From a virus: 64,000 nucleotides of DNA. Below, piece after piece: positions 16,944-34,259 of the stretch. The position numbers and the translations under genes are program-made. The stretch is taken from the IMG/VR virus record IMGVR_UViG_3300019487_000031, positions 1-64,000 of that record; one strand, given 5' to 3'. The notes under the pieces were generated by a model that worked only from the letters and a program-made list of their open reading frames with translations, had not been told where the DNA came from and ran no database searches. The first letter of the stretch is position 1; every line of letters starts with the position of its first letter.

Positions 16944-17144
16944 TTGGCTGTAAGATATCGCAGCCCGGGAATAATGAATAGAAGTAATTACTCTAAACAT
17001 TTATCTGTTGATCATAATCATAAAACTAAACAAGTCAGAGGTTTATTATGCACCTCTTGTAATTCTGCACTTGGATTATTTAGAGAATCTGCTATAGTTT
17101 TAAAGGGCGCAATTAATTACTTGAAAAAATATGAGAAAAAATAA
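16944..17144 (+). CDS. Mini endonuclease VII-like protein (66 aa)
   Basis: LSVDHNHKTKQVRGLLCTSCNSALG matches the endonuclease VII core. It sits immediately upstream of the intein-containing primase-helicase. Confidence 0.55.
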   Translation: MAVRYRSPGIMNRSNYSKHLSVDHNHKTKQVRGLLCTSCNSALGLFRESAIVLKGAINYLKKYEKK

Positions 17145-20142
17145 AATGGAATATATTCGACTTTCAGAAAATTATAATATCAATTCTTTAATTCCAGTTT
17201 CAAGTTCTCCCTACGGTTTTATTAAAAATAAAGAACTTCCTTATTTTATATCCATGCTTAAATACAATGAAGAGCATTTTAAAATTTGGAAAAAAACTAA
17301 ATCTTTGAAAGGAATTTCTGGTGGTCTAACTAATAAAATTTGGTTTGATTTTGACAGCCATGAGGAATTATCTCTTTGTTTTTCCGATGCTGTAAAATGT
17401 GTAAAATTTCTTAAAACTTTAGATATTCCAGAAGAATGTATACAAATTTCCTTTTCAGGTAATAAAGGTATTGGACTTATTATTGAGACTGATACTGATT
17501 TTACAATCGAAGATATTCGAGCTTTTTGTATCGGGGTTTATAAAGAATTAACTTTGAAAACTTTTGATGTTAAAATGTACGATCACCAGCGCATTTTTCG
17601 TTTAGTTTTTACGAAACATGAAAAAACCGCGCGATATAAAATCCCACTTTCCTTAGAGGAACTCGAATTACAAAATATTCCTCAAATCCTTTCATTCGCT
17701 GAAAGTTTGGAACATTTTAATATTGACGATACCTTGGCTTATTACCAACCTTATAAAGTTACTAAAAAACTAACGGACAAAATTAATTCTTATAAAACCT
17801 TATCCCTTAAGAAGGATAAAACTAATTTATCCCCTATTGCGGATAATTTCATTGATTATTCTAATAAGCCTAAAGATTGGCGAAATTGTAAGTGGGCGAT
17901 TTTACAAGGACATTTTGCTGGTGGAGAACGTCACCAAGCTTTAACTATTATTGCTGCCACGGCTCGCGGATTAGGATATGATCGTGAAACCGCTTATTAT
18001 CTCTGTAAATCCGCTATTAAGAAACAAGCTAGACTTCATTCTCAAGAAGAATTTGATACTGACGAAGTATGGGAAAATATTCTAGAAAGCATTTATGCTC
18101 CCGATTGGAAGGGCGGCCAATATTCTTGTAAAACTGATTTATGGCTTCAAAACTATTGTGAACATCTTGGCGTTCATAAATGTCAAAATGATAAAGCGGT
18201 TAATCCCACAATTCAAATTGAAGAAGCTTATGGGCTTTTCAAAGACTATGCTGAAAATATTGACAAGCTAACTATTAAAACCGGCATTAATCCAATTGAT
18301 CATAATCTTAGAATGACTATTGGAATGTTGGTAGGACTTGTGGCTCCTGCGGGCGTCGGCAAATGTCTTGGAAAAGGTACTCCGATTTTAATGTATGATG
18401 GGACTATTAAAAACGTTGAGGATATTCACTCAGGCGATTTGTTAATGGGAGATGATTCAACTCCTCGTAAAGTATTAAGTACTTGTAGAGGACAAGAAAA
18501 TCTTTATGAAGTTCAACAAGAAACCGGAATGAACTATGTTGTCAATGAATCACACATTCTTTCATTAAAAGGTTCCTGGAAAACTAATAATAAAAGATTA
18601 AAATATATCCAATACGGAAATATTGTTGATATTGAAGTTAAAGAATATTTAAATAAAAGTAAGCAATTTAAACAATACATGAAAGGATACAGAGTTCCTA
18701 TTGAATTTCCTGAAAGTAACTTAGAACTTTCTCCATATTTTCTAGGCTATTGGATTGGGGATGGAACTACCGATAAATGCGAAATCACATTTGGCAAAAC
18801 TGATATTAATCATATTAAATGGTTTGAGAAGTTTGCTTTAGAAAATAATTGTTTTGTTACCAAATATCAAGATCGCGAATGTATGCGATTAAATTTTTCC
18901 GGAGCAAGAGGAGATAATATTGTTGCGAATAATCTTCCTAGTAATAAAACTATTCCTGAAAAATATCTTGTTAACTCTAGAAAAAATCGTTTAGAGCTAT
19001 TAGCCGGTATAATTGATTCAGATGGTCATTATAATAAATCTAGAAATATATATGAAATTATTACTAAATATGAAGAATTAGCTAATCAAATTCAAAATTT
19101 AGCATCACTTCTGGGATTTAGAAGCAAAATCTCTCTTAGTGAAAAATACTGTATTTATAAAAATGAAAAAAGAACTGGGTTGTATTATAGAGTTATTATT
19201 AAGGGTAATAACTTATATGAGATTCCGTGTAAAATTGAAAGAAAAATTTCTAGACCTATAGAACAACAAAGACATTATGATTTAAGTAAAGTTGAAGTAG
19301 TTTCAAAAGGCGTTGGGGATTATTACGGGTTTGAAATTGATGGAAACAAACGATTCGTTTTAAAAGATGGCACTGTAACGCATAACACCTCAATTTCCCT
19401 CCAAGTGCTTAATACTATGTCGAAAAATGACGAGCTTTGTTGTTTCTTCAGCTTTGATATGTTCCACGCTCTTGTATTCCAAAAGCTTGTTCAAAAACAC
19501 TTCCAAGTTGATCCAGAACATATTTTCGATTCCTTTAAAGCCAACCCTGAATATGGTCAACAAGTTATTGAACTACTTCAACAGGAATACAAAAATGTAG
19601 AGTTTTGTTTTGATGCTGGTCAAACCCCAGATCAAATTGCGCAAACTATTAAAATGGTTGAAGAGAAGCGCGGAAAGAAAGTTCGATTCATTGTAATTGA
19701 TTATAATGAGCTTGTACTATCTGATAAGTCAGATCCTACTGCGGCTTCCGCTTATGTTATTCAAAAGCTTCGTGAAATTGCTAATACTCAAAATCTTTGT
19801 GTTCTAGTATTGTTACAGCCTAACAAAATATCCGGCAATCCCTCAGAAGAGATTAATTCTTATCATGCGGCTAAAGGTTCGTCCGCAATCTCTCAAGCCG
19901 TTTCTATTATGCTAGGTGTTAATCGTCCAGGCTATGATCCAAAATATCCAGAAGATGATAAATTCATTACAGTTAATTGTTTAAAGAATCGAATGGGTAA
20001 GTTATTCTCAGTAGATTTACATTGGAATGGATTAACTGGAACCGTTCGAGAATTAACAGTTGAAGAAAAAGGTCATTTAAGAAATGTTCTAGCCCGGAAG
20101 GAAGAAGAGAAGAATAAAAAAGGCGGAGGCTGGATTGAATAA
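17131..20142 (+). CDS. Bifunctional primase-helicase (AEP/prim-pol-like N-terminus plus DnaB-family helicase) interrupted by an intein
   Basis: N-terminal WFDFDSHEE (DxD) and ISFSGNKGIG (AEP motif II-like). C-terminal DnaB-like motifs (FIVIDYNELV...). Walker A APAGVGK|TS is reconstituted after intein removal. Confidence 0.8.
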   Translation: MRKNKMEYIRLSENYNINSLIPVSSSPYGFIKNKELPYFISMLKYNEEHFKIWKKTKSLKGISGGLTNKIWFDFDSHEELSLCFSDAVKCVKFLKTLDIPEECIQISFSGNKGIGLIIETDTDFTIEDIRAFCIGVYKELTLKTFDVKMYDHQRIFRLVFTKHEKTARYKIPLSLEELELQNIPQILSFAESLEHFNIDDTLAYYQPYKVTKKLTDKINSYKTLSLKKDKTNLSPIADNFIDYSNKPKDWRNCKWAILQGHFAGGERHQALTIIAATARGLGYDRETAYYLCKSAIKKQARLHSQEEFDTDEVWENILESIYAPDWKGGQYSCKTDLWLQNYCEHLGVHKCQNDKAVNPTIQIEEAYGLFKDYAENIDKLTIKTGINPIDHNLRMTIGMLVGLVAPAGVGKCLGKGTPILMYDGTIKNVEDIHSGDLLMGDDSTPRKVLSTCRGQENLYEVQQETGMNYVVNESHILSLKGSWKTNNKRLKYIQYGNIVDIEVKEYLNKSKQFKQYMKGYRVPIEFPESNLELSPYFLGYWIGDGTTDKCEITFGKTDINHIKWFEKFALENNCFVTKYQDRECMRLNFSGARGDNIVANNLPSNKTIPEKYLVNSRKNRLELLAGIIDSDGHYNKSRNIYEIITKYEELANQIQNLASLLGFRSKISLSEKYCIYKNEKRTGLYYRVIIKGNNLYEIPCKIERKISRPIEQQRHYDLSKVEVVSKGVGDYYGFEIDGNKRFVLKDGTVTHNTSISLQVLNTMSKNDELCCFFSFDMFHALVFQKLVQKHFQVDPEHIFDSFKANPEYGQQVIELLQQEYKNVEFCFDAGQTPDQIAQTIKMVEEKRGKKVRFIVIDYNELVLSDKSDPTAASAYVIQKLREIANTQNLCVLVLLQPNKISGNPSEEINSYHAAKGSSAISQAVSIMLGVNRPGYDPKYPEDDKFITVNCLKNRMGKLFSVDLHWNGLTGTVRELTVEEKGHLRNVLARKEEEKNKKGGGWIE
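18364..19386 (+). mobile_element. Intein (341 aa) with a LAGLIDADG homing endonuclease domain, inserted in the helicase P-loop
   Basis: Starts CLGKGTPILMYDG (Cys1, block A) directly after GVGK. Contains LAGIIDSDGHY. Ends VTHN followed by Thr(+1). Splicing would give the canonical GVGKTS Walker A. In frame with the host ORF. Confidence 0.8.
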
Positions 20143-20707: not shown

Positions 20708-21316
20708 ATGAACAAAACAGCATCAAAGCCAAATCCAGTTTTTACAGTAGGGCATTCCAATCACTCGCTTGAACATTTTTTGGAGTTACTCAAACACCAT
20801 GAAATTACCACTGTGGCGGACGTGAGATCTCAACCGTACAGTCGATTTAGACCAATCTTTAATCGCGAAGCACTGGAGTCGGAGCTTAAAAAAAATCAGA
20901 TCGCATATGTTTTTCTGGGTAAAGAACTCGGTGCTCGTTCAAACGATTCGACCTGCTATGTGAACGGCAAGGTCAGCTACGAGCGACTTGCAAAGACATC
21001 CTTATTTAAAGATGGGATCAACCGAATTCTCAAAGGAGCAAAGAAGTTTCGCATTGCGTTGCTCTGTGCCGAAAAAGTCCCTCTCGACTGCCATCGCACC
21101 ATTCTTGTTAGCAGATACTTGGTAGAACGCGGAGTTGATGTGAGCCGTATTTTATCTGACGGTACGTTGGAAGCGCACGAAGACACGATGAGTAAACTTC
21201 TGGCAGAAACAGGAATTGGTTCCGCTCTTTTTGATTCAAGATCCGATCTTCTCGCAAAAGCCTATGAAGAACGAGGTAGTCAGATAGCATACAAATTGCC
21301 TTCAGAACCGAAGTGA
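20708..21316 (+). CDS. DUF488-family protein (copy 1) in GC-rich island 2
   Basis: The N-terminus VFTVGHSNHSLEHFLELL...TTVADVRSQPYS is the DUF488 signature. Local GC is much higher than in the flanks. Confidence 0.55.
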   Translation: MNKTASKPNPVFTVGHSNHSLEHFLELLKHHEITTVADVRSQPYSRFRPIFNREALESELKKNQIAYVFLGKELGARSNDSTCYVNGKVSYERLAKTSLFKDGINRILKGAKKFRIALLCAEKVPLDCHRTILVSRYLVERGVDVSRILSDGTLEAHEDTMSKLLAETGIGSALFDSRSDLLAKAYEERGSQIAYKLPSEPK

Positions 21317-21801
21317 CGAGAGGATGTGCGATGAAGATTTTTACAGTTGGATTCACCAAAACATCTGCTGAGTCTTTCTTTTCTCGCCTAAAGGAAAATG
21401 GCGTGCGGCAACTTCTCGATGTAAGACTGAACAATGCTTCGCAGCTTGCGGGTTTTGCTAAGAAAGATGATTTGCGGTTTTTTCTGAAATCCATTTGCGG
21501 AATTGAGTACGATCACGGGCCAGAACTAGCCCCGACTTCTGACATGCTCGATGAGTACAAAAAAAGGGGGGGTGGGCGCGCTTTCCACGCTCCTTGGAGA
21601 AACTTTTTGAGTTATAAATGTCAAATTTGCAATAAGCCCTTTCCTGATCAAGTTTTCTATGTTAAACTTCCTGGTCATGAATCTCCAGTTTGTGAGCATA
21701 TAGAACAAATCTTAGTTCATGAAGAAAAACAAAAACAGTTCCAAAAAAGTTTAAAGGATCCCACAAAAGGTTTTTATGAATATAGAGAAAAGTTTGAATG
21801 A
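21313..21801 (+). CDS. DUF488-family protein (copy 2) with an AT-rich C-terminal Cys/His extension. The junction lies at an A7G7 homopolymer tract
   Basis: MKIFTVGFTKTSAESFFSRL...LLDVRLNN is DUF488-like. The composition switches from GC-rich to AT-rich at 21559-21572 (AAAAAAAGGGGGGG), followed by CQICNK...HESPVCEH. Confidence 0.5.
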   Translation: MTRGCAMKIFTVGFTKTSAESFFSRLKENGVRQLLDVRLNNASQLAGFAKKDDLRFFLKSICGIEYDHGPELAPTSDMLDEYKKRGGGRAFHAPWRNFLSYKCQICNKPFPDQVFYVKLPGHESPVCEHIEQILVHEEKQKQFQKSLKDPTKGFYEYREKFE

Positions 21802-23326
21802 TCGTTTAATATATGGTAAAGCTTCTCAATCTCATATCGTTTCTATTGAATGTAAAGACGATAAGGCTATTCTTTTCTTAGAAACCCCCCAAGGTATAGA
21901 AACCAAAGAAGTTCCTAATAGATATTGGCTTCTCTCGCCCAAGCCTTATTACCCAGCCAAATGGCGTAAAATGGCCGGTAATCAATTCTTTCAGTATGGC
22001 AGGCAGTTCTCCTCACGCGAAGCCTTCCAACGCGCTAGAAGCTATTATAAGAAGAATGGCGACGTTTTTAGCGTTTGGAACGAAAAGGAAAGCTTCATGG
22101 TTCTTTTCGGCCATAGCTATTACCGTAATCTCGATATTAAGGATGTTTCTATATTATCCTTCGATATTGAAACTACATCATTAGATCCTAATGAACCTAA
22201 TGCTAAAGTTCTTTTAATCTCTAATACTTATCGTAAAGGCGGAAAAGTAGTTAGACAGCTATTTGCATATGATGATTACGATTCTCAAGAAGAAATGATT
22301 AAATCTTGGTGCAAAGTAGTTCGAGAATATAATCCTTCTATTTTATGTGGTCATAATATTTTCACCTTCGATTTGTATTATCTTAATGAAATTATGAAAC
22401 ATCATGGCGGATTAAAATTGGGCCGCGACGGATCTAATCTTCATTTTTCTAATTACGAATCCCTATTTCGCAAAGACCAAACCCAAAACATTTCATATAA
22501 AAAGGCTTTTATATATGGGCGTGAAATTTGCGACACTCTTTTTCTTTCTATAAAATTTGATATTGTTCAAAAGAAATACGATTCTTATGGATTGAAACAT
22601 ATTATTAATAGAGAAGGATTGGAAGATCCGAATCGTGTTTTTTATGATGCCGAACAAATTAGATTTAAATATCAAGATCTTAAAGAATGGGAAAAAATTA
22701 AAGAATATTGTAAAGGCGATTCGGATGATGCGTTAAAGCTTTTTGATTTAATGGCTCCTCCTTTCTTTTACCTCACGCGCTCAGTTCCTAAGTCTTTTCA
22801 GGAAATCATTTGCCGCGCCACGGGTTCGCAATTAAATTCTATGTTTGTTCGTAGCTATCTTCAAGAAGGGCATTCAATTCCCAAAGCTGATATTGGAAAA
22901 GAGTTTACTGGGGCGATTTCTTGGGGAAATCCGGGCATTTATTCTAATGCCATTAAATGGGATGTGGCGTCTCTGTATCCTTCTATTTGTTTACAATATG
23001 AGATTTATCCTAAACAAAAAGATCCTCAAAAGAACTTCTTGAAAATTTTAGAATATTTTACAAAAGAACGGCTTTCAAATAAAAAGATTGCACAAGAACA
23101 AAAAAGTAAATATCATAAGGATATATCTGAAGCCCAAAAACAAGTTTGTAATTCTGCTTATGGGATGTTAGCAACGAACGGATTAAACTTTAATAATTTT
23201 GAACAAGCTCAATTAATTACAAAACATGGCCAAGAAATTTTATGTAAGGCGATTAAATGGGCAACAGGAAAAGAATATGAAGAATGGAATCCAGAAGAAA
23301 ATGAAGAAGTTGAAACCGAAGATTGA
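21776..23326 (+). CDS. Family B DNA polymerase, N-terminal part (3'-5' exonuclease plus palm motifs A and B)
   Basis: Exo I SFDIETT. Motif A KWDVASLYPSI (DxxSLYPS). Motif B KQVCNSAYG (KxxxNSxYG). The ORF ends about 50 aa after motif B, with an acidic tail. Confidence 0.8.
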   Translation: MNIEKSLNDRLIYGKASQSHIVSIECKDDKAILFLETPQGIETKEVPNRYWLLSPKPYYPAKWRKMAGNQFFQYGRQFSSREAFQRARSYYKKNGDVFSVWNEKESFMVLFGHSYYRNLDIKDVSILSFDIETTSLDPNEPNAKVLLISNTYRKGGKVVRQLFAYDDYDSQEEMIKSWCKVVREYNPSILCGHNIFTFDLYYLNEIMKHHGGLKLGRDGSNLHFSNYESLFRKDQTQNISYKKAFIYGREICDTLFLSIKFDIVQKKYDSYGLKHIINREGLEDPNRVFYDAEQIRFKYQDLKEWEKIKEYCKGDSDDALKLFDLMAPPFFYLTRSVPKSFQEIICRATGSQLNSMFVRSYLQEGHSIPKADIGKEFTGAISWGNPGIYSNAIKWDVASLYPSICLQYEIYPKQKDPQKNFLKILEYFTKERLSNKKIAQEQKSKYHKDISEAQKQVCNSAYGMLATNGLNFNNFEQAQLITKHGQEILCKAIKWATGKEYEEWNPEENEEVETED

Positions 23327-23462
23327 AGTAAAAATTGAACGATGTATAGTTTGTAGTGGTCATGGGCGGTTATCTAATGAAGAAGGGTATTTAATAGACA
23401 TTTCATGTTCATTTTGCAAAGGAACTGGGGAAGTTGAAATAACTTATTACGACTATGATTAA
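23226..23462 (+). CDS. Small zinc-ribbon protein inside the polB-interrupting cassette. The likely true start is ATG 23301, overlapping the polB-N stop
   Basis: CIVCSGHG...CSFCKGTG (CxxC...CxxC). Ends in YYDYD* with the next ATG overlapping. Confidence 0.4.
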   Translation: MAKKFYVRRLNGQQEKNMKNGIQKKMKKLKPKIEVKIERCIVCSGHGRLSNEEGYLIDISCSFCKGTGEVEITYYDYD

Positions 23463-23817
23463 AGAAATAATTTTAGATAATGGATTTTATTCTATTATTC
23501 TTGAACATAAAGATGATAATTTGTATGTTGATTTTAAAGTTTATAGTATTTTCACAGTTTCAAAGGGGAGGAAACAATGGATTGAGTATCGGGATGAAGC
23601 CGATTTAAATAAAACAGTAGAAAATGTCGCCGAAGCTCTTCCATTAATTCAAGGTTATTTAAAATATGATGGTTGTATTAATTATACCTATCCTAGTCAA
23701 GAATGTTATATGCTTCATGGATGTTCTTTAGAACGCTTTCGATCTATTCTAAAAGTTTTTGAAGCTATTTATCGAGAATCTGCAAAATTAATGTCTACTG
23801 TTTACGACTATGATTAA
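23455..23817 (+). CDS. Hypothetical protein in the polB-interrupting cassette
   Basis: This ORF ends with VYDYD*, just as the upstream ORF does. The 18-nt junction TTACGACTATGATTAAAG is repeated at 23447-23464 and 23802-23819. Confidence 0.4.
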   Translation: MIKEIILDNGFYSIILEHKDDNLYVDFKVYSIFTVSKGRKQWIEYRDEADLNKTVENVAEALPLIQGYLKYDGCINYTYPSQECYMLHGCSLERFRSILKVFEAIYRESAKLMSTVYDYD

Positions 23818-24361
23818 AGTTATAGGCCCAAAAGATAAAAAGAAATATAAAAATTATATTAATGTTACGTCTTCAGGTTCAGACAGGTTTAAATTCCTTT
23901 CTCCATTTTTTCTCGGGCCTGTAAAACTTTATAATAATATTTATTCTAAAAATATGGAAAATGCCTGGCAATTTTCTAAAGTTTATAAAGAACATTTAGA
24001 TTTAAATGGTAATCCTTCAGAACAATATTTTAAATGGGCTAAAAAAGGTTGGAACGATTCTTGGGCTCATCGATATCCTATGGGAAAAAATAGAAAGCCT
24101 GAATATTCTTATTGGGATGGAAAGAAATTAGATTATTTACAAGGCCGCCAACAGATTTATATTCCTTTGTATTCTTCTTTAGTTGAAAAAACTGGTCAAT
24201 TTACTGATTTGGTTAACCGAGCAAAACAAAAAGAAGATATAATTATATTTGATTATGATGGTTATTCGGATTATGATACACTTGAAGAAGTTACTAAGAA
24301 TCCTAATCGTAAAATGGGCCATGGATTTGTTTTAGCTTTATGTATAATTTCACGCTTATAA
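23810..24361 (+). CDS. Divergent NADAR (DUF1768)-like protein in the polB-interrupting cassette
   Basis: RFKFLSPFFLGPVKLYNNIYSKNMENAWQFSKV resembles the NADAR N-terminal signature (F.FLSNF.....G..Y.S.EHAYQA.K). The later LVEKTG is compatible with the NADAR C-terminal half. Weaker than the NADAR at 30139. Confidence 0.35.
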   Translation: MIKVIGPKDKKKYKNYINVTSSGSDRFKFLSPFFLGPVKLYNNIYSKNMENAWQFSKVYKEHLDLNGNPSEQYFKWAKKGWNDSWAHRYPMGKNRKPEYSYWDGKKLDYLQGRQQIYIPLYSSLVEKTGQFTDLVNRAKQKEDIIIFDYDGYSDYDTLEEVTKNPNRKMGHGFVLALCIISRL

Positions 24362-25008
24362 ACTGCGACACCGATTCTATTACTATTAGTAAACCCGATA
24401 ATTCCCCTTTCTCCGTTCAAGAACAACAAAAGCTTTTAAAAGAACTTAACTCTTTATTTCCTGAAAAGATTTCTTGGGCGGACGATGGGTATTTCCAAAA
24501 GGTTATTGTATTCAAGGCTAAGAATTATATTTTATGGGATGGGGAAAAGATTAAGTCCAAAGGTTCGGCTCTAAAGGATGGTAAAAAAGAACAAGCTCTT
24601 AAAGATTTTATTCAAGAAACAGTTCAAGCGATTTTAAACGATAAAGAAAACTTTCAAGAAATCTATCATAAATATATTAAAGAAGCTTTGGATATTAAAG
24701 ATATTAAAAGATGGAGTTCCAGAAAAACCCTAACACATAAGACTTATAGTTCTTCTCGTCCAAATGAAACAAAAGTTATTGATGCGATTAAAGGGACTGA
24801 TTATAAAAATGGTGATAGAATCTGGACATTTTTTAAAGAAGATGGTTCTTTAGAACTTGTGGAAAATTTTAATGGTGAATATGATAAAATGGTTATGGTG
24901 AAAAAAGTATTCACGACTAGTAAATTATTTGCTTCTGTATTGGATCATAAGATGATATACTTGAACTATTCTTTGAAGAAAAATTTAGAGGCTCTAGAAA
25001 AACTATGA
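24340..25008 (+). CDS. Family B DNA polymerase, C-terminal part (motif C plus KKRY/thumb)
   Basis: INCDTDSITI is motif C (DTDS) 10 aa from the ATG. KAKNYILWDGEKIKSKG is the KKRY-like motif. Confidence 0.75.
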   Translation: MYNFTLINCDTDSITISKPDNSPFSVQEQQKLLKELNSLFPEKISWADDGYFQKVIVFKAKNYILWDGEKIKSKGSALKDGKKEQALKDFIQETVQAILNDKENFQEIYHKYIKEALDIKDIKRWSSRKTLTHKTYSSSRPNETKVIDAIKGTDYKNGDRIWTFFKEDGSLELVENFNGEYDKMVMVKKVFTTSKLFASVLDHKMIYLNYSLKKNLEALEKL

Positions 25009-25710: not shown

Positions 25711-26499
25711 ATGAAATCCCTACCAGATAATATTAAAACTCTTCCTGAACTATCTTCCCAATCTATTCTATTGTCCTATAGAGGTTCCATTGCTCATAAT
25801 CTATATCAACCTTCCAATGAACCCAATTCTATTGATGATATTGATTTAATGGGAATTTGTGTTCCTGAAGTTTCTTATTACTTCGGCTTAGATAAATTCG
25901 CCCCCCGAGATACAAAAGAAATGTTTATTGATGAATGGGATATCGTTTGTTATGAACTTAGAAAGTTTGTATATCTTTTAATGAAGGGAAATCCTAATGT
26001 CATTTCAATGCTTTATTTAAAGCCGGAACATTATTTAGTAAAGCATCCAGCGGCTGAACTTTTAATTGAAAACAGAGCTTTATTTAATTCCCACGAGATT
26101 TATCATTCATTTATTGGCTATGCCAAAGCTCAACTTTATAAAACGGAACATATGGTCTTCAAAGGCTATATGGGAGAAAAAAGAAAGAAACTTGTTGAGA
26201 AGTTTGGATATGATACTAAAAATGCCGGGCATCTTATTAGATTAATGATGATGTGTAATGAATGGTTAGTTGAAAAAAACTTTGAGGTTTATCGGGATTT
26301 TGACCGTCAATTTCTTTTAAATATTAAAAACGGGATATACTCTTTAGATCAGATTAAAGAAATGGCGGCTAATTTATTTACAAAAGGAGAAGCTCTTTTT
26401 AAAGCACAACAAAAAACTATTCCAGAAACGGTTGATACTAAAGCTGTAAATGAATTGTTATTGGAAATGTATAAGAAAATTGATTGGGTGAAATTATGA
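25711..26499 (+). CDS. Pol-beta-superfamily nucleotidyltransferase (KNTase-like: NTase N-domain plus helical C-domain)
   Basis: SYRGSIAHNLYQPSNEPNSIDDIDLMGI fits the GS...DxD nucleotidyltransferase motif. The C-terminal half is all-helical. Confidence 0.4.
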   Translation: MKSLPDNIKTLPELSSQSILLSYRGSIAHNLYQPSNEPNSIDDIDLMGICVPEVSYYFGLDKFAPRDTKEMFIDEWDIVCYELRKFVYLLMKGNPNVISMLYLKPEHYLVKHPAAELLIENRALFNSHEIYHSFIGYAKAQLYKTEHMVFKGYMGEKRKKLVEKFGYDTKNAGHLIRLMMMCNEWLVEKNFEVYRDFDRQFLLNIKNGIYSLDQIKEMAANLFTKGEALFKAQQKTIPETVDTKAVNELLLEMYKKIDWVKL

Positions 26500-28377: not shown

Positions 28378-29502
28378 ATGAGAGAATATAAACACGCCAT
28401 TTTCATTGGCCGATTTCAACCGTTCCATAACGGCCATTACGAAGTCCTAAAACAGGCCCTAGAAATTGCCGACACGGTTCTTGTATTAGTCGGTTCTTAT
28501 AAAGTCTCTACAAATATTAAAAATCCTTTTACGTTTGAAGAACGAGTTCAAATGATTCAATCGGTTATTGATGACCGCACTTATGAATATCCTTCTCCAG
28601 ATCAAGCAGTAACTATTGGCGGGGAACTTTTAAAGCGCGTTAAATTTATCCCCGTTCGTGATCATTATAATAACGATAACTTTTGGATTACAGAGGTTCA
28701 GCATAAAGTTTCTGAATATGTAACTGAAAACGAAACAGTTGCATTAGTGGGAAATTATAAAGATGCAAGTAGTTATTATTTAAATCTTTTCCCGCAATGG
28801 GAATTTGTGCCCACAGAACAAAGTTCTAGGCTTTCCGCTACCCAAATCCGCACCATTCTTTTTAAACGCAGTTCTAAAATCCAAGACTTTAACCCATATC
28901 GTCCTGTAACTACCTACGATTCTTTACTTGATCAATCATACGAAAGCATGATTCCATTTAAAATTAATGAGTGGATGATTAAAAACTACTTTAAAACTGA
29001 AAAATACCATAAACACGTAGAAGAATACCAATTTATAGAAAAATATAAGGAACAATGGTCAAATGCTCCTTTTCCTCCCGTTTTTATGACCACGGATTGC
29101 GTTGTAGTATGCTCAGGACACGTTCTTGTCGTGGAACGCGGGTTCAACCCCGGAAAAGGTCAATTGGCGCTTCCTGGGGGCTTTTTAAAGCAAACTGAAG
29201 CTCTTGAGGATGGGGCTTTAAGAGAACTTAAAGAAGAAACGGGTATTTCTATAGATAAGCTAATATTAAAGAATTGTATTGCAGATAAGCGTATTTTTGA
29301 TTATCCTGGTAGGAGTTTAAGAGGAAGAACGATTACTCAAGCTTTCTATATTAGGCTTAAAGATGGGGCTCTTCCAAAACTTAGAGCCGGAGATGATGCT
29401 AATAAAGCAATATGGATTTCTTTAAATGAAGTATCTTCTAAAGAAGAACTGTTTTTTGAAGACCATGCACATATTATTAATTATTTCATTCGGAGAGATT
29501 AA
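28378..29502 (+). CDS. nadM: Bifunctional NMN adenylyltransferase / Nudix hydrolase (NadM-Nudix, phage NatV-like)
   Basis: IFIGRFQPFHNGH is the (H/T)xGH nucleotidyltransferase motif. The C-terminal Nudix box is LPGGFLKQTEALEDGALRELKEETGI (GX5EX7REUXEEXGU). Confidence 0.8.
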   Translation: MREYKHAIFIGRFQPFHNGHYEVLKQALEIADTVLVLVGSYKVSTNIKNPFTFEERVQMIQSVIDDRTYEYPSPDQAVTIGGELLKRVKFIPVRDHYNNDNFWITEVQHKVSEYVTENETVALVGNYKDASSYYLNLFPQWEFVPTEQSSRLSATQIRTILFKRSSKIQDFNPYRPVTTYDSLLDQSYESMIPFKINEWMIKNYFKTEKYHKHVEEYQFIEKYKEQWSNAPFPPVFMTTDCVVVCSGHVLVVERGFNPGKGQLALPGGFLKQTEALEDGALRELKEETGISIDKLILKNCIADKRIFDYPGRSLRGRTITQAFYIRLKDGALPKLRAGDDANKAIWISLNEVSSKEELFFEDHAHIINYFIRRD

Positions 29503-29646
29503 ATGAAGGGAGATTGTCCGGAATGTGGTTCTATGGAAGTTGATTTATATTTTTTAGGAGAAGGTCCTTATACTCCAGAATCTTTCTATTGGCGCGCCGA
29601 TTGTGAATGGTGCGATAATTATAATTCACAAGAAAACGAAGAATAA
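29503..29646 (+). CDS. Small zinc-ribbon protein (47 aa)
   Basis: MKGDCPECGS...RADCEWCDNY (CxxC...CxxC), placed between the NMNAT-Nudix and macro genes. Confidence 0.35.
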   Translation: MKGDCPECGSMEVDLYFLGEGPYTPESFYWRADCEWCDNYNSQENEE

Positions 29647-30152
29647 TGGGACTTGAATATAAAAAAATGTCTTTATTTGATGCGCCGGAAGGTTCAATTA
29701 TTGTCCATGCTTGTAATGCTCAAGGAAGTTGGAATTCTGGAATTGCTAAAGAATTTAAAGAAAGATATCCAAGATCTTTTCAACATTATGAAGAATATTG
29801 TAGATTAAATCCTCGCCATTTAAAAGTTGGACGAGGAAAATTACTTTCTTCAACTATAGAACATAAGCATAAAGTTGGTATACTTATTACTTCAAATAAA
29901 TACGGCGCAGAAAAAGATCCTAAAGAACTTATTAAAATTCAGACAACTCTAGCAATAAATCAACTTTTAGAAACTAATCTTGCCGCGCATGGACGAAATC
30001 CAAGCGTTAAAGGAATTATATATTCTAATAAATTTAATTCAGGACTTTTTAAAGTTCCTTGGAAAGAAACTGAATTGATTTTGACAACGGTTTTAAAACA
30101 CTATTCATGGATTACTTGGATAGTTTGCGATCCTAATCATGAGACAGACTGA
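29646..30152 (+). CDS. Macro domain protein (ADP-ribose binding/hydrolase)
   Basis: SIIVHACNAQGSWNSGIAKEF resembles the macro-domain N-terminal signature (VNAAN...GGGVDGAI). Confidence 0.65.
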   Translation: MGLEYKKMSLFDAPEGSIIVHACNAQGSWNSGIAKEFKERYPRSFQHYEEYCRLNPRHLKVGRGKLLSSTIEHKHKVGILITSNKYGAEKDPKELIKIQTTLAINQLLETNLAAHGRNPSVKGIIYSNKFNSGLFKVPWKETELILTTVLKHYSWITWIVCDPNHETD

Positions 30153-30651
30153 TAAATATCTTTTCTTTTATGGCGGGTTTTTAAGCCAATGGTATCTTTG
30201 TAAGTTTAATGATTGGTTACGTGATTATAATTGTGCGGAACAATGTATGATGGCTCAAAAGGCTTTACTTTTTGAAGATATTAAATCATTTGATTATATT
30301 ATGAAAGAAACCAACCCGGCTTTCCAAAAAGCACGAGGAAGAAAAATTGAGGGATTTAATCAAGAAAAATGGGATTTGTTTAAAGAAGCCATTGTTTGTA
30401 GTGCCAATTATTTGAAGTTTGCACAAAATAAAACACTTCGAAAGAAATTGTTAGATACTAAAGATTTAATATTGGTAGAAGCTAGTCCATATGATAAAAT
30501 ATGGGGAATTGGATTATCAGAAAATAATCCATTGGCAGATGATGAAAAGAATTGGAAAGGTCAAAACCTTTTAGGAAAAGTTTTAATGAAAGTTAGAGAA
30601 AGTTTAAAAAATGTAGATGAACAATTGAGTTCATTGAATAATAAGGAGTAA
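30139..30651 (+). CDS. NADAR (DUF1768, YbiA-like) ADP-ribose-processing domain protein
   Basis: YLFFYGGFLSQWYLCKF...CAEQCMMAQKA plus LKFAQNKTLRKKLLDTKDLILVEASPYDKIWGIGLS track the E. coli YbiA signatures (FYS..DDYGDFSNF...SEHYFQAQKF ... LLATAPAKLVEHTENDAYWGDG). Confidence 0.8.
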   Translation: MRQTDKYLFFYGGFLSQWYLCKFNDWLRDYNCAEQCMMAQKALLFEDIKSFDYIMKETNPAFQKARGRKIEGFNQEKWDLFKEAIVCSANYLKFAQNKTLRKKLLDTKDLILVEASPYDKIWGIGLSENNPLADDEKNWKGQNLLGKVLMKVRESLKNVDEQLSSLNNKE

Positions 30652-30653
30652 AA

Positions 30654-32021
30654 ATGGAAAATCTAATTCTTGACGTCGATAGTTATAAGTTCTCACATTG
30701 GCTTCAATATCCTGCCAATACATCATACATGTTCTCATATCTTGAAAGTCGTGGAGGAAAGTATTCAAATACACTTTTCTTCGGACTTCAATATCTTATT
30801 AAACAACATTTGACTAAGCCTATTACTCCTGCGATGGTTGAAGAAGCGAAACTTTTTGCTGAAGCGCATGGCGAGCCGTTTAATTATGAAGGCTGGATGT
30901 ATATTGCAAAAGATCTTAAAGGAAAGCTTCCTATTCGTATTAGAGCGGTGGCTGAAGGCGCTGTAGTTCCTACTAGTAATATCCTAATGTCTGTTGAATC
31001 AACTGATCCTAAAGTATTTTGGGTTGTATCCTTCTTTGAAACCCTTTTAATGCGAGTTTGGTATCCTATTACTGTAGCTACTCAATCCTTTCATATTAAA
31101 AAGCTTATTAAGAGTTATTTGGAAAAGACTTCTGATGATGCAAACGCTGAAATTAGTTTTAAGCTTCATGACTTTGGAAGTCGCGGCGTTTCTTCTCAGG
31201 AATCGGCAGGAATTGGCGGGGCGGCGCATCTTGTAAATTTCTTGGGTTCTGATACAGTCGCGGGCGTTTATTATGCCAATCATTTCTATAATAATAAAAT
31301 GGCAGGCTTTTCTATTCCCGCGGCTGAACACTCCACTATGACTATGTGGGGGAGAGAAAATGAAGTCGAAGCATACAGAAATATGCTAAAGCAATATGCA
31401 AAGCCCGGGGCTTTAGTTGCTGTTGTATCAGATTCGTATGATCTTTATAATGCGGTTGAAAATCTTTGGGGAGGAACTCTTAAAGATGAGGTTGTAAATT
31501 CTGGAGCTATTGTTGTAATTCGTCCAGATTCCGGCAATCCTCCTGAAGTAGTTCTTAAAACTCTTCAGCTTCTTGAATCCAAGTTTGGAGTTACTTATAA
31601 TAAGAAGGCTTATAAAGTTTTAAATAATGTTAGAGTAATTCAAGGGGATGGAATTAATGAGGAATCTATTCGTCAAATTCTAGAAGTTGCCACTTCTTAT
31701 GGATACTCGGCTTCTAATATTGCATTTGGAATGGGTGGTGCTCTTTTACAACAAGTTAATCGCGATACTCAAAAGTTCGCCTTTAAATGTTCTGCGGCGC
31801 GAGTTGACGGAAAACTTGTTCCGGTCTTTAAAAGTCCTAAGACTGATCTTGGAAAACAATCTAAGAAAGGTTTATTGGATTTGGTTCTAAAAGGTAATAA
31901 GTTTGAAACGGTTGAAGGATTGGATAATGTTGGTTCTGTATTAAAGGTTGTTTATGAAAATGGACAACTTATAAAAGAACAAACATTGGATGAAATCAGA
32001 AAGAGATCAAACGAGTTTTAA
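30654..32021 (+). CDS. nadV: Nicotinamide phosphoribosyltransferase (NAMPT/NadV)
   Basis: The N-terminus NLILDVDSYKFSHW matches the NAMPT signature (TDSYK.TH). The 455-aa length is typical. Confidence 0.8.
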   Translation: MENLILDVDSYKFSHWLQYPANTSYMFSYLESRGGKYSNTLFFGLQYLIKQHLTKPITPAMVEEAKLFAEAHGEPFNYEGWMYIAKDLKGKLPIRIRAVAEGAVVPTSNILMSVESTDPKVFWVVSFFETLLMRVWYPITVATQSFHIKKLIKSYLEKTSDDANAEISFKLHDFGSRGVSSQESAGIGGAAHLVNFLGSDTVAGVYYANHFYNNKMAGFSIPAAEHSTMTMWGRENEVEAYRNMLKQYAKPGALVAVVSDSYDLYNAVENLWGGTLKDEVVNSGAIVVIRPDSGNPPEVVLKTLQLLESKFGVTYNKKAYKVLNNVRVIQGDGINEESIRQILEVATSYGYSASNIAFGMGGALLQQVNRDTQKFAFKCSAARVDGKLVPVFKSPKTDLGKQSKKGLLDLVLKGNKFETVEGLDNVGSVLKVVYENGQLIKEQTLDEIRKRSNEF

Positions 32022-32417
32022 TATGCATTCTTGGGGAGATGGTTTTCCATATTTTAGAGAAGTTGGTGAAGCGGCGGATTTTATTGGGGACTTCTGTATA
32101 AAATACGGAAGAATTCCAGTAAGACAAACTAAAGAAAAGTTTGGAACAGTTCGAGTTTATTCTGGATGGGGGATATACAATCTTTATTGGTTTTTTAGAC
32201 CTCACTATGTATATTATAGATGGCCAAGATACATCCGAGATTTAGATGATGCCGTTTTTGCAAGGCTGTTTAGGTTTTTTAATAAACCAATTTATACATA
32301 TCAATCTTATATTTATAGATTGGCTTATAAAAAGACTATTGAAAAATATCCAATGATTAAAAAAGAAATTCTTTGTTCTGCGGATTGGCCCGAACTTTTG
32401 GTGGGATTATAAAAAAT

Positions 32418-32660
32418 ATGGGCTATCATAAGATAGAAATAAAAAAGGGGGTTTTGGGAGAATCTTCAAAAATTCAAGAAGAATTAGATGAGTTAAAAGA
32501 TGCTGAAAATCAAGGAGTTAAAATTTTAATTCATTGTGAACTATCTGATTTATATGGAGCTTTAGAAGCCTGTGCTAAAAAATATGGACTTTCTATGATT
32601 GATCTTCAACAAATGGCTTTTCTAACGCGTGAATCTTTTGAAGCGGGTAAACGAAAATGA
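32418..32660 (+). CDS. MazG-like nucleotide pyrophosphohydrolase (small, all-alpha)
   Basis: KIQEELDELKDA...ILIHCELSDLYGALEACAKKYGLSMIDL fits the MazG EExxE...D pattern. Start chosen as ATG 32418, after the upstream stop. Confidence 0.45.
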   Translation: MGYHKIEIKKGVLGESSKIQEELDELKDAENQGVKILIHCELSDLYGALEACAKKYGLSMIDLQQMAFLTRESFEAGKRK

Positions 32661-33238
32661 TTGATTATCGAAAACTAGCTGATAGTATAGATTTTTATAA
32701 AAAACTTGGGTTTACGCGAATTGAGGCCCCTTGGTGGGTTTCTAAAGAAGTTTTGGATATTACTACACCCCCAGATTTACAAACAGATTTACAAAATATT
32801 TATTTTCTTCCTAATAACAAAAAATGTTTAGTAGCATCAGGAGAACAGTCTTTTCTTTATATAGCAGTTAAAGGAAGATTACCAAAAGGAAAATTTCAAA
32901 CCATAACTCCTTGTTTTCGGAATGAATCTATAGGTATCTTAAACAAAAAATGTTTTATGAAAAATGAACTTATTATTACAGATAAAGTAAATTCAAAAAA
33001 TTTAGATTTAGTAATCAAAAATTGTTTTTCGTTTTTCTATGAACAAGTTCCTAAAAAAGATCTTTTAAAAATAATTAAAACGGATGTTGGTTTTGACATT
33101 ACTTATGATAAAATTGAATTAGGTTCTTATGGAATTAGACATTGTGAATTTTTAGATTGGATTTACGCTACTGGGTGTGCCGAACCCCGGTTAAGTAGAG
33201 CAATTGAAATAAGTGAAAAATCACGAGGGTTTAAATGA
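32657..33238 (+). CDS. Minimal class II aminoacyl-tRNA-synthetase-like catalytic core (193 aa, no anticodon-binding domain)
   Basis: Motif 1-like KKLGFTRIEAPWWVSKEVL, motif 2 KFQTITPCFRNES (FRNE) and motif 3-like ATGCAEPRLSRAI (G.G.G.ERL). Confidence 0.55.
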   Translation: MIDYRKLADSIDFYKKLGFTRIEAPWWVSKEVLDITTPPDLQTDLQNIYFLPNNKKCLVASGEQSFLYIAVKGRLPKGKFQTITPCFRNESIGILNKKCFMKNELIITDKVNSKNLDLVIKNCFSFFYEQVPKKDLLKIIKTDVGFDITYDKIELGSYGIRHCEFLDWIYATGCAEPRLSRAIEISEKSRGFK

Positions 33239-33899
33239 AACTTATTATCGCAGGAAGTAGAACATTATTAATCCAAACTTCTTTTCTTCAAGAGATTATG
33301 TATCATCATTTTAATTTATTTCCAAAGGAAATTGTTTCTGGGGGATGTCGAACTGGCGCCGATTTTAAACATAAATACACCAAACATTTCAAGCCTAAAA
33401 AACTTCGTAAAGAAATCTATAATTTAAATAATATTAGAAATAGAGATACGTATAATATTGCTAAATGGACGCATAGATTATATACTTGTTTTTTTTCAAC
33501 CAGACGGTTCTCCAAATAAGGGAACAAAGACAGGAAAAATTTAATGAAATATTCCCACAAACAATTAAGTGAATATTGTCAAGAAGTCCAAAAGATTTTA
33601 GATAATGTTGAATATAAACCCGGAAGTTTATTTGATACCTCTATATCTTCAATCGCCGATGCAATTGTTCTTAGAATTGTAGTTCCTTGTATTAGTTCGT
33701 TCGAACATTCTAAAATAATTCCTATAACACATTCAATGATGATTCCTGTAGATGAACTAGAATATGTACAAATGTACTTAGAAAAATTTATTTTGTATCA
33801 TATTTATAGCATGATACAAAGACTGGAAATTCATGAAATCCAAGAGTTTTTGAAATATAAAGATAATTATTATAATCATCCTCACCCCATTGAGGATAG

Positions 33900-34259
33900 A
33901 TGAAACCTTCCTATTTTAAACTTGCCGAAAAGCTAGCGCAGAAATCCGATCACCCTATACATCGCCACGGGGCAGTCATTGTTTCCGGAAATAAGATTCT
34001 AGGACTTGGATTTAATAAGTATAAAACCCATAGCCGCTCTACTCATCCTTTTAAAATGATTCATGCTGAACTATCTGCCGTTATTAGTTCTGGCCTTGAA
34101 AACCTTACAAATTGTGATATTTATATCTTTAGGCGTCGTAAAGATGGATTATTGGGCAATAGTAAGCCTTGCTATTCATGTCAAAGCATGTTAAAATCTT
34201 TAAATATTAAGAGAGTTTTTTATTCTTTTGAAAACGGTTTTAAAAAGGAGATATATTAA
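33900..34259 (+). CDS. dCMP/cytidine deaminase-family zinc enzyme
   Basis: MIHAELSAV (H-A-E) and SKPCYSCQSM (PCxxC) are the CDA-fold zinc-binding motifs. Confidence 0.7.
   Translation: MKPSYFKLAEKLAQKSDHPIHRHGAVIVSGNKILGLGFNKYKTHSRSTHPFKMIHAELSAVISSGLENLTNCDIYIFRRRKDGLLGNSKPCYSCQSMLKSLNIKRVFYSFENGFKKEIY

Follow-up and report, generated by a model that had tools for sequence, protein, structure and literature searches.

A miniature seryl-tRNA synthetase-like core of viruses, obligately paired with a HisE/MazG-like protein

What would a virus do with the bare catalytic core of an aminoacyl-tRNA synthetase (aaRS) of class II, and onto which acceptor would such a core transfer an amino acid? The question is raised by an open reading frame (ORF) in a 64,000-nucleotide stretch of viral DNA, which we call the window. 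The ORF, which starts with ATG and encodes 193 aa, lies on the plus strand at 32657-33238, just where the original prediction had placed it, and the three class II motifs quoted there are recognisable as residues 18-25, 84-91 and 171-183. The gene and its motifs are:

32657..33238, + strand: gene for a miniature class II catalytic core of seryl-tRNA synthetase (SerRS) type, 193 aa, ATG start
32708..32731, + strand: class II motif 1, GFTRIEAP, with Pro25 (profile search and hhalign onto SerRS motif 1)
32831..32848, + strand: VASGEQ loop, equivalent to the SerRS 'TAE' (TxE) amino-acid-binding loop (profile alignment; SerRS 2dq3/6gir, 'LIPTAEVP'/'LIATAEQP')
32906..32929, + strand: class II motif 2, TPCFRNES, with Arg88 and Glu90 (aligned with SerRS TPCYRRE/TPCFRSE)
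32954..32971, + strand: FMKNEL strand (F100, K102, E104), equivalent to SerRS HQFDKVE (profile alignment)
33116..33139, + strand: ELGSYGIR strand (E154, S157), equivalent to SerRS EISSCSN, the Mg2+/substrate-binding strand (manual register, E. coli SerRS)
33167..33205, + strand: class II motif 3, ATGCAEPRLSRAI, with T172 and R178 (anchored on the motif-3 Arg; GTGCAEPR of the family corresponds to SerRS GSGLAVGR)

Since hhalign matched the family profiles to the individual E. coli proteins SerRS and HisIE either in part or without significance, we used a manual register and gapless scoring instead: the N-terminal half of the core was profile-aligned to SerRS, and the C-terminal half was set in a register anchored on the E. 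coli motif-3 Arg. In the profile alignment, 'LVASGEQSFL' falls on SerRS 'LIPTAEVPL', 'TPCFRxE' on the motif-2 consensus 'TPC(F/Y)RxE' and 'FxKNEL' of the family on 'HQFDKVE(L/M)', and in the manual register the invariant T172 falls on a Ser/Thr six residues N-terminal of the motif-3 Arg. Conservation was counted across 148 aaRS-like representatives that differ mutually by at least 50%. S61 and E63 of the TxE-type loop as well as F100, K102 and E104 proved invariant (148/148 each), R88 was retained in 147 and P25 in 141 of the 148, and the positions in the C-terminal half were conserved to the same degree (E154, T172 and R178 in 146/146 each; S157 in 145/146). Every position of the SerRS-type set (TxE loop, motif-2 Arg and Glu, FxKxE, ExxS, T172 and R178) is thus at least 98% conserved except E90, which alternates between Glu and Asp. 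The conserved positions correspond to residues of Thermus thermophilus SerRS which we take to bind ATP and Mg2+ (Arg256, Glu345, Ser348, Arg386) and, presumably, the substrate serine (TxE loop, Glu279, Thr380). Such strong constraint on SerRS-type residues speaks for a functional adenylation site whose specificity resembles that of SerRS.

For the core we found the antiparallel beta-sheet fold of class II catalytic domains, the fold on which the original prediction had staked itself. The top Foldseek matches were PylSc and the catalytic domain of PylRS (E~2e-10, TM 0.7). By sequence, the match to PylRS was marginal (E 0.03-0.7), and the conserved polar residues agree with SerRS instead; PylRS has a dedicated tRNA and a large hydrophobic pocket, and PylSc, a naturally split-off class II core, still counts ~270 aa. 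The earlier interpretation is supported in part. The class II core stands; EpmA/PoxA and AsnA had been named as examples of stand-alone cores, but LysRS/AspRS-type (class IIb) cores are not the nearest to the protein in structure or sequence, and its sequence affinity is to SerRS. Neither specific similarity to HisRS nor a HisRS anticodon-binding domain was detected in the core, despite the corresponding PHROG 4806/RefSeq label.

The core is also not simply a SerRS. Bacterial-type SerRS has a coiled-coil arm for tRNA-Ser, a longer motif-2 loop and hairpin and a C-terminal extension, all of which are trimmed here: the N-terminal arm and the C-terminal extension are absent, the motif-2 loop (pLDDT about 59) is ~7 residues shorter and the hairpin ahead of motif 3 ~17 residues shorter. 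The serS equivalog model TIGR00414 scored 15.9 bits against a cutoff of 301.65 and covered residues 10-91 only. A single-sequence Pfam scan returned a marginal match to the PheRS core (E=0.039), and single-sequence phmmer against the PDB returned spurious matches only (MbtI, myosin light chain), so that a family profile was needed; PHROG 4806 was matched over the full length (E=8e-37). The 1,574 homologs of the core in a 5.8-billion-protein collection are nearly all 175-200 aa long, so that the short length characterises the whole family and does not come from truncation. Unlike SerRS, moreover, the core is nearly restricted to viruses and obligately accompanied by a HisE-like protein.

This partner is encoded immediately upstream, in the gene that had earlier been described as MazG-like and that we can now assign to the HisE/MazG type. 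Its start is the ATG at 32418 (MGYHK...) and not the TTG at 32373 given in the ORF list. The features of the partner gene and of its junction with the core gene are:

32418..32660, + strand: partner gene, 80-aa all-alpha protein resembling HisE/MazG-type NTP pyrophosphohydrolases, without the first HisE helix
32421..32459, + strand: conserved N-terminal peptide GYHxxxIxKGxxG (Y3, H4, I8, G11, G14; by conservation)
32478..32549, + strand: metal-binding signature EExxE(x15)ExxD (E21, E22, E25, E41, D44; invariant in 76-77 of 77)
32657..32660, + strand: ATGA overlap of the partner's TGA stop with the ATG of the core (from the sequence), as in translational coupling

The signature of the MazG/HisE superfamily, EExxE(12-28)ExxD on a helical bundle, was found in the partner, and in a gapless alignment its residues E21, E22, E25, E41 and D44 are identical in E. 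coli HisE, although the alignment as a whole reaches a z of only 2.4. In the same alignment the N-terminal peptide falls on the stretch SYT...G of E. coli HisE, and in fusion proteins it comes after the aaRS-like domain, with linkers of 0-6 residues. Similarity to the Pfam family PRA-PH (PF01503) is weak throughout: the window's partner scores 16.1 bits, below the gathering threshold of 21.3, and the family matches in 32/32 members with a best E of 1.7e-4. Since the match begins at position 31 of 86 of the profile, the first HisE helix is missing. Y3, H4, K10, S17 and K18 are among the invariant residues.

How tightly are the two genes linked? We sampled 80 diverse IMG/VR loci and two GenBank phages, which are not phylogenetically independent, and clustered the neighbouring ORFs; the family of ~80-aa neighbours joined the aaRS-like family in this clustering by way of fusion proteins. 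A six-frame HMM search then recovered both core and partner in 83/83 loci, the window included. In 59 of these the two lie within 60 nt on the same strand, three are fused, 19 are separated by up to 1 kb and two by up to 2 kb. The strand is common in all loci and the gene order is free (partner downstream of the core in 43 loci, upstream in 37); the ORFs overlap in 51 of the 77 unfused pairs, and the gap is at most 13 nt in nine more.

In a representative library of 1.84 billion proteins, the aaRS-like family comprises 1,595 clusters at E<=1e-3 (1,441 at E<=1e-10), and among the best 150 of the 1,595 we found eight fusions of the aaRS-like domain to the partner (260-288 aa). The cultured cyanophage MaMV-DH01 encodes a 266-aa fusion (gp153) as well, annotated 'seryl-tRNA synthetase'. 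In a crude, poorly resolved neighbour-joining tree the fusions fall into ~9 clades; as each is nearest to unfused relatives, this suggests that fusion arose recurrently. Other architectures were seen. In P0323 (443 aa) the aaRS-like domain (1-183) is followed by a 260-aa C-terminus matching phrog_20092 (unknown function) in place of the HisE-like partner. The partner carries additional domains in L049 (5163-5990), L067 (5075-5980), L056/L057, L068, L001 and L002. On the jumbo-phage contigs L049 and L067 the extra domain is a His-rich, possibly cupin-like N-terminal one of ~195 aa (phrog_4784), and in Acinetobacter T4-like phages the partner has a ~130-aa C-terminal extension. Pfam and PHROG searches gave no informative match for the extra domains of L049/L067, L056, L068, L001 and L002 or for the C-terminus of P0323.

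Among GenBank phages, 276 records contain the core and 270 the partner, and the two are distributed over the genera in nearly equal numbers, indicating that the association is exclusive in both directions. A survey of 185,579 species genomes yielded only 11 matches, all of them on MAG contigs and mostly in CPR/DPANN bins, which are plausibly phage sequence. The module is thus nearly restricted to viral sequence. One fusion of core and partner comes from a contig that carries a giant-virus MAG label (L074, IMGVR_UViG_GVMAG-S-3300006056-154_000001); the module may thus extend to viruses other than tailed phages, or the assignment of the contig may be wrong.

Current annotation gives these genes a different meaning. 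PHROG 4806 bears the label 'histidyl tRNA synthetase', in the phi92 record gp196 is a 'putative seryl-tRNA synthetase' and gp197 a 'MAZG-type fold', and one genome paper took such a label for genuine charging of tRNA-Ser by a phage (PMC8953757). On about 270 GenBank phage genomes, and in PHROG 4806, the label 'histidyl/seryl-tRNA synthetase' is probably wrong. A 2022 review of aaRS paralogs lists SLIMP and the ligases that load amino acids onto carrier proteins (aa:CP ligases) as the only paralogs derived from SerRS (PMC9437257). The full-text literature searched, in which subscription journals are little covered, contained no description of the core family or of the pair, and surveys of jumbo phages and of viral NAD-ADPr functions do not mention the core family. 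The original prediction had known of no comparable minimal version described for phages; this agrees with the literature searched, but the genes themselves had already been catalogued (PHROG 4806; phi92 gp196/gp197). What is new is the size class and the obligate partner of an aaRS-derived paralog.

It had also been noted that the gene sits downstream of an NAD island. The position is correct: the window carries a compact block of NAD/ADP-ribose genes at 28378-32021 (+), composed of an NMNAT-Nudix fusion (28378-29502), Macro (29646-30152), NADAR (30139-30651) and an NAMPT-like gene (30654-32021). The identities of the first three were confirmed with Pfam, and the NAMPT-like identity comes from 36 conserved viral homologs and a reading by eye. 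The link, however, is incidental: among the 82 other loci, no more than 5 have homologs of NAMPT, NMNAT and NADAR at a distance of up to 6 kb from the pair, and 0 have Macro, and the module was found in only 3/36 NAMPT-centred loci, which also served as controls for tRNA, RlaP and RNA ligase genes. A paper on SerRS, SIRT2 and ADPR has no bearing here, since the ADPR in it is bound by SIRT2.

Taken together, the two proteins point to activation of an amino acid for a purpose other than ordinary tRNA charging. We propose, with a probability of roughly 40%, a virus-specific enzyme of two subunits (sometimes a single chain) in which the core would make an adenylate and the partner would handle a nucleotide acceptor. 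(i) From ATP and serine, or a small hydroxy amino acid much like it, the core would form an aminoacyl-adenylate. Judging from the sequence, adenylation activity as such is very probable. Serine is somewhat favoured as substrate because the core retains both the residues for ATP and Mg2+ and those that bind serine in SerRS. (ii) The core would act in a physical complex with the partner encoded at 32418-32660, whose metal ligands are intact and whose first helix is absent; that the two form a heteromer is the component in which we have the most confidence. (iii) The activated group would not be handed to a tRNA picked by identity elements, as the core has no element that reads tRNA identity, and we hold a non-canonical acceptor to be likely. 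(iv) This acceptor would be a nucleoside triphosphate or a terminal nucleotide bound by the HisE-like subunit; a nucleotide-type acceptor is a tentative choice. (v) The HisE-like subunit would free pyrophosphate from the bound acceptor, leaving a modified nucleotide as product.

There are precedents for such a proposal. GluQRS (YadB), EpmA/PoxA/GenX and AsnA follow the same concept, in which a bare core makes an adenylate for a non-canonical acceptor, namely a tRNA nucleoside, a lysine of EF-P and ammonia, respectively (PMC9437257). On the chemical side, two cases may serve as models. A MazG-type enzyme feeds an amino-acid ligase in the MazZ-PurZ logic of phages, and formation of Ap4A by SerRS is said to have been described structurally by Belrhali in 1995. 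In its most far-reaching form, which is rather unlikely as a whole, the proposal would be a new aaRS-derived enzyme, heteromeric or fused, combining a seryl-adenylate synthase with a HisE-type pyrophosphohydrolase. The core, at ~185 aa, would be the smallest known natural one of class II, its motif-3 helix would complete the partner's incomplete bundle or serve as its docking site, and the enzyme would make a novel compound, an aminoacyl-nucleotide or a nucleotide conjugated to AMP, serving large-phage takeover or countering nucleotide- or tRNA-based immunity.

But, why should the partner not be a regulated enzyme and the core its sensor, as HisZ is for HisG? The core would then bind serine and ATP, or seryl-AMP, and allosterically switch the partner, a pyrophosphatase that may, for example, sanitise or reshape the (d)NTP pool, and nothing would be aminoacylated. 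We consider this improbable. HisZ derives from HisRS, is without adenylation activity (PMC9437257) and has HisG as its partner, HisE being the next enzyme of that pathway. The viral core differs in its SerRS affinity and in its retained machinery, as the class II arginines, the Mg2+-binding Glu and Ser persist in 145-148 of 148 representatives; keeping all catalytic residues weakens the comparison. No HisG-like gene is prominent among the recurrent neighbours, and the partner's missing helix suggests structural co-dependence of the two proteins and not simple regulation.

Given the same low probability, an enzyme directed at the ends of tRNA or other RNA has more circumstantial evidence to be weighed. 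In that case the core would serylate the CCA-3' end or another 3'-terminal adenosine, and the partner would act on a phosphate or triphosphate at the terminus. Targets might be phage tRNAs, repaired tRNAs or, by analogy to GluQRS/YadB, a modified nucleoside. As far as is known, all class II aaRSs bind A76 in one common pocket. RNA modification by a truncated aaRS is known from GluQRS/YadB (PMC9437257). Against this stand the absence of an element binding the tRNA body, the shortened motif-2 loop and the acidity of both subunits (median pI 5.5 and 5.1), the last being shared by E. coli SerRS.

The genomic context bears on this alternative. Some modules lie inside tRNA arrays (Caulobacter phages, L047, L050, L053), yet the association is non-specific, since tRNAs occur within 6 kb in 23/82 module loci (28%) as compared to 17/36 NAMPT-centred controls (47%); in the window, Rfam and tRNA scans found nothing adjacent to the module, the sole tRNA being 29 kb away. 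In rV5-type phages, an RlaP nucleotidyltransferase (PF10127) is encoded two genes upstream of the module and a CCA-adding enzyme 4 kb upstream, and a MazG-superfamily pyrophosphatase is listed in a predicted RNA-repair neighbourhood of rV5 type (PMC9503650). RlaP proteins append 1-2 NMPs to damaged RNA 3' ends (Dec 2025 preprint, PMC12776372). Pol-beta nucleotidyltransferases of one type occur near the module in 10 loci and those of another in 6-7. As a third component they were rejected, RlaP being as frequent in the NAMPT-centred controls. The window has its own RlaP-family gene at 25711-26499 (+; PF10127, E=1.2e-19). A gene for a YqeY-like tRNA-binding protein follows the pair directly in phi92 (domain confirmed), but it was found in 0/83 loci and many phages that have no such pair carry one, so that we regard it as lineage-specific. 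RNA ligases are encoded nearby in 15/83 module loci compared to 1/36 controls, a modest excess and a weak hint, as the loci concerned are mostly interrelated. Apart from the partner, no cluster of neighbours is present in more than 14/82 loci. With the tests for tRNA, RlaP, YqeY-like and NAD genes failed and the RNA ligase loci mostly related to each other, the partner is the only robust context of the core.

Could the nucleotide itself be the attacking group? A synthase of dinucleoside polyphosphates (Ap4N), in which seryl-AMP would be no more than the AMP donor and an NTP on the HisE-like subunit the attacking nucleophile, would yield a product that may act as alarmone, as signal or as RNA-cap precursor. 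Class II aaRSs are known to form Ap4A from aminoacyl-AMP and ATP as a by-product when no tRNA is present, a core devoid of an acceptor-binding domain might fall back on this chemistry by default, and the partner offers a predicted binding site for NTP and Mg2+. We nevertheless rate it as quite improbable. Its appeal is chemical plausibility alone, and HisE/MazG sites set the alpha-beta bond for hydrolysis; we know of no such site that presents the gamma-phosphate as nucleophile. Strictly conserved T172 and E104, the putative ligands of the serine hydroxyl, would be needless if the amino acid were merely a leaving group.

Still less probable is aminoacylation of a protein, be it a residue of the partner (candidates K10, S17, K18, Y3 and H4) or a host protein, in the manner of EpmA or the aa:CP ligases. 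The HisE/MazG-type fold of the partner weakens this reading, and the aa:CP ligases (Bll0957/Atu2573 type) are themselves different, being zinc-dependent proteins of ~300 aa and methanogen-type SerRS origin that work on a phosphopantetheinylated carrier. The core of ~185 aa has no conserved zinc triad, and no adjoining phosphopantetheinyl carrier was found.

The least probable alternative is a base-modification pathway resembling MazZ-PurZ, in which the partner would convert a (d)NTP to the (d)NMP and the core would acylate the latter with an amino acid, giving a compound from which a modified base of DNA or RNA could be made. The likeness lies in an adjoining phage MazG-type pyrophosphohydrolase and an ATP-dependent amino-acid-ligating enzyme that act sequentially on a nucleotide, as in the cassettes of Z-genome phages, and it is an analogy only, PurZ being an adenylosuccinate synthetase homolog without aaRS fold and MazZ a complete MazG domain; we know of no MazZ-PurZ fusions. 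To our knowledge, rV5-type, phi92-type, Acinetobacter T4-like and phiCbK-like phages have no DNA hypermodification in common. The phage enzyme Mom, which transfers an aminoacyl group onto a nucleobase amine (PMC13219725), and the genes of nucleotide metabolism near the module (in the window a dCMP/cytidine deaminase two genes downstream at 33900-34259, +, PF00383, E=1e-13; elsewhere ThyA or RNR) speak for this pathway, but neither a kinase nor any other downstream enzyme accompanies the module consistently.

If the proposed two-subunit enzyme making a modified nucleotide is real, it would be a virus-specific addition to the non-translational aaRS paralogs (HisZ, AsnA, EpmA, GluQRS, aa:CP ligases) and the first of them coupled to a nucleotide pyrophosphohydrolase. 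With ~185 residues and a fully conserved active site, its core would be a natural minimal class II core, which would bear on the debate over the minimal size of a functional synthetase ancestor and might serve as a compact engineering scaffold. The module is spread over unrelated large phages, among them candidates for therapy from the rV5, phi92 and Acinetobacter T4-like groups; what it makes could thus be a metabolite or modification that has so far escaped notice in phage-host conflict.

Several minor observations were made along the way. In the window, a 94-aa ORF (33235-33519, +) overlaps the stop of the core. It starts like SLOG/DUF2493 proteins (MKLIIAGSRTL…SGGCRTGAD) and then loses the resemblance, which may mean that it is truncated or frameshifted; Pfam and PHROG gave no match, and none of the 82 other loci encodes a homolog. 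Ten loci (L055 and related ones) encode, 1-3 genes upstream of the module, a 174-aa protein (neighbour cluster 6) with the motifs GGHISF and GLHMSI (HxS/T), which suggest a LigT/Acb1-like 2H phosphoesterase; Pfam gave no match and phrog_12204 is labelled 'unknown function'. On a 251-kb module-carrying viral contig (L028), ARAGORN called a 'tRNA-Pyl' of amber-suppressor type at 214-289, a possible sign of stop-codon reassignment. Further upstream in the window, read by eye, a 1003-aa primase/helicase-like ORF (17131-20142, +) seems to harbour an intein that carries a homing endonuclease of LAGLIDADG type (…GVGKCLGKGTPILMYDG…LLAGIIDSDGHY…VTHNTSI…), and two tandem paralogous ORFs of 202 and 162 aa (20708-21316 and 21313-21801, +) resemble DUF488-type proteins (…VFTVGHSNHS… / …IFTVGFTKTS…). 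A family-B DNA polymerase is seemingly split in two, an exonuclease/N-terminal part (21776-23326, +) and a C-terminal part in which the motif NCDTDS is found (24340-25008, +), which lie ~1 kb apart with three small ORFs between them (23226-24361).
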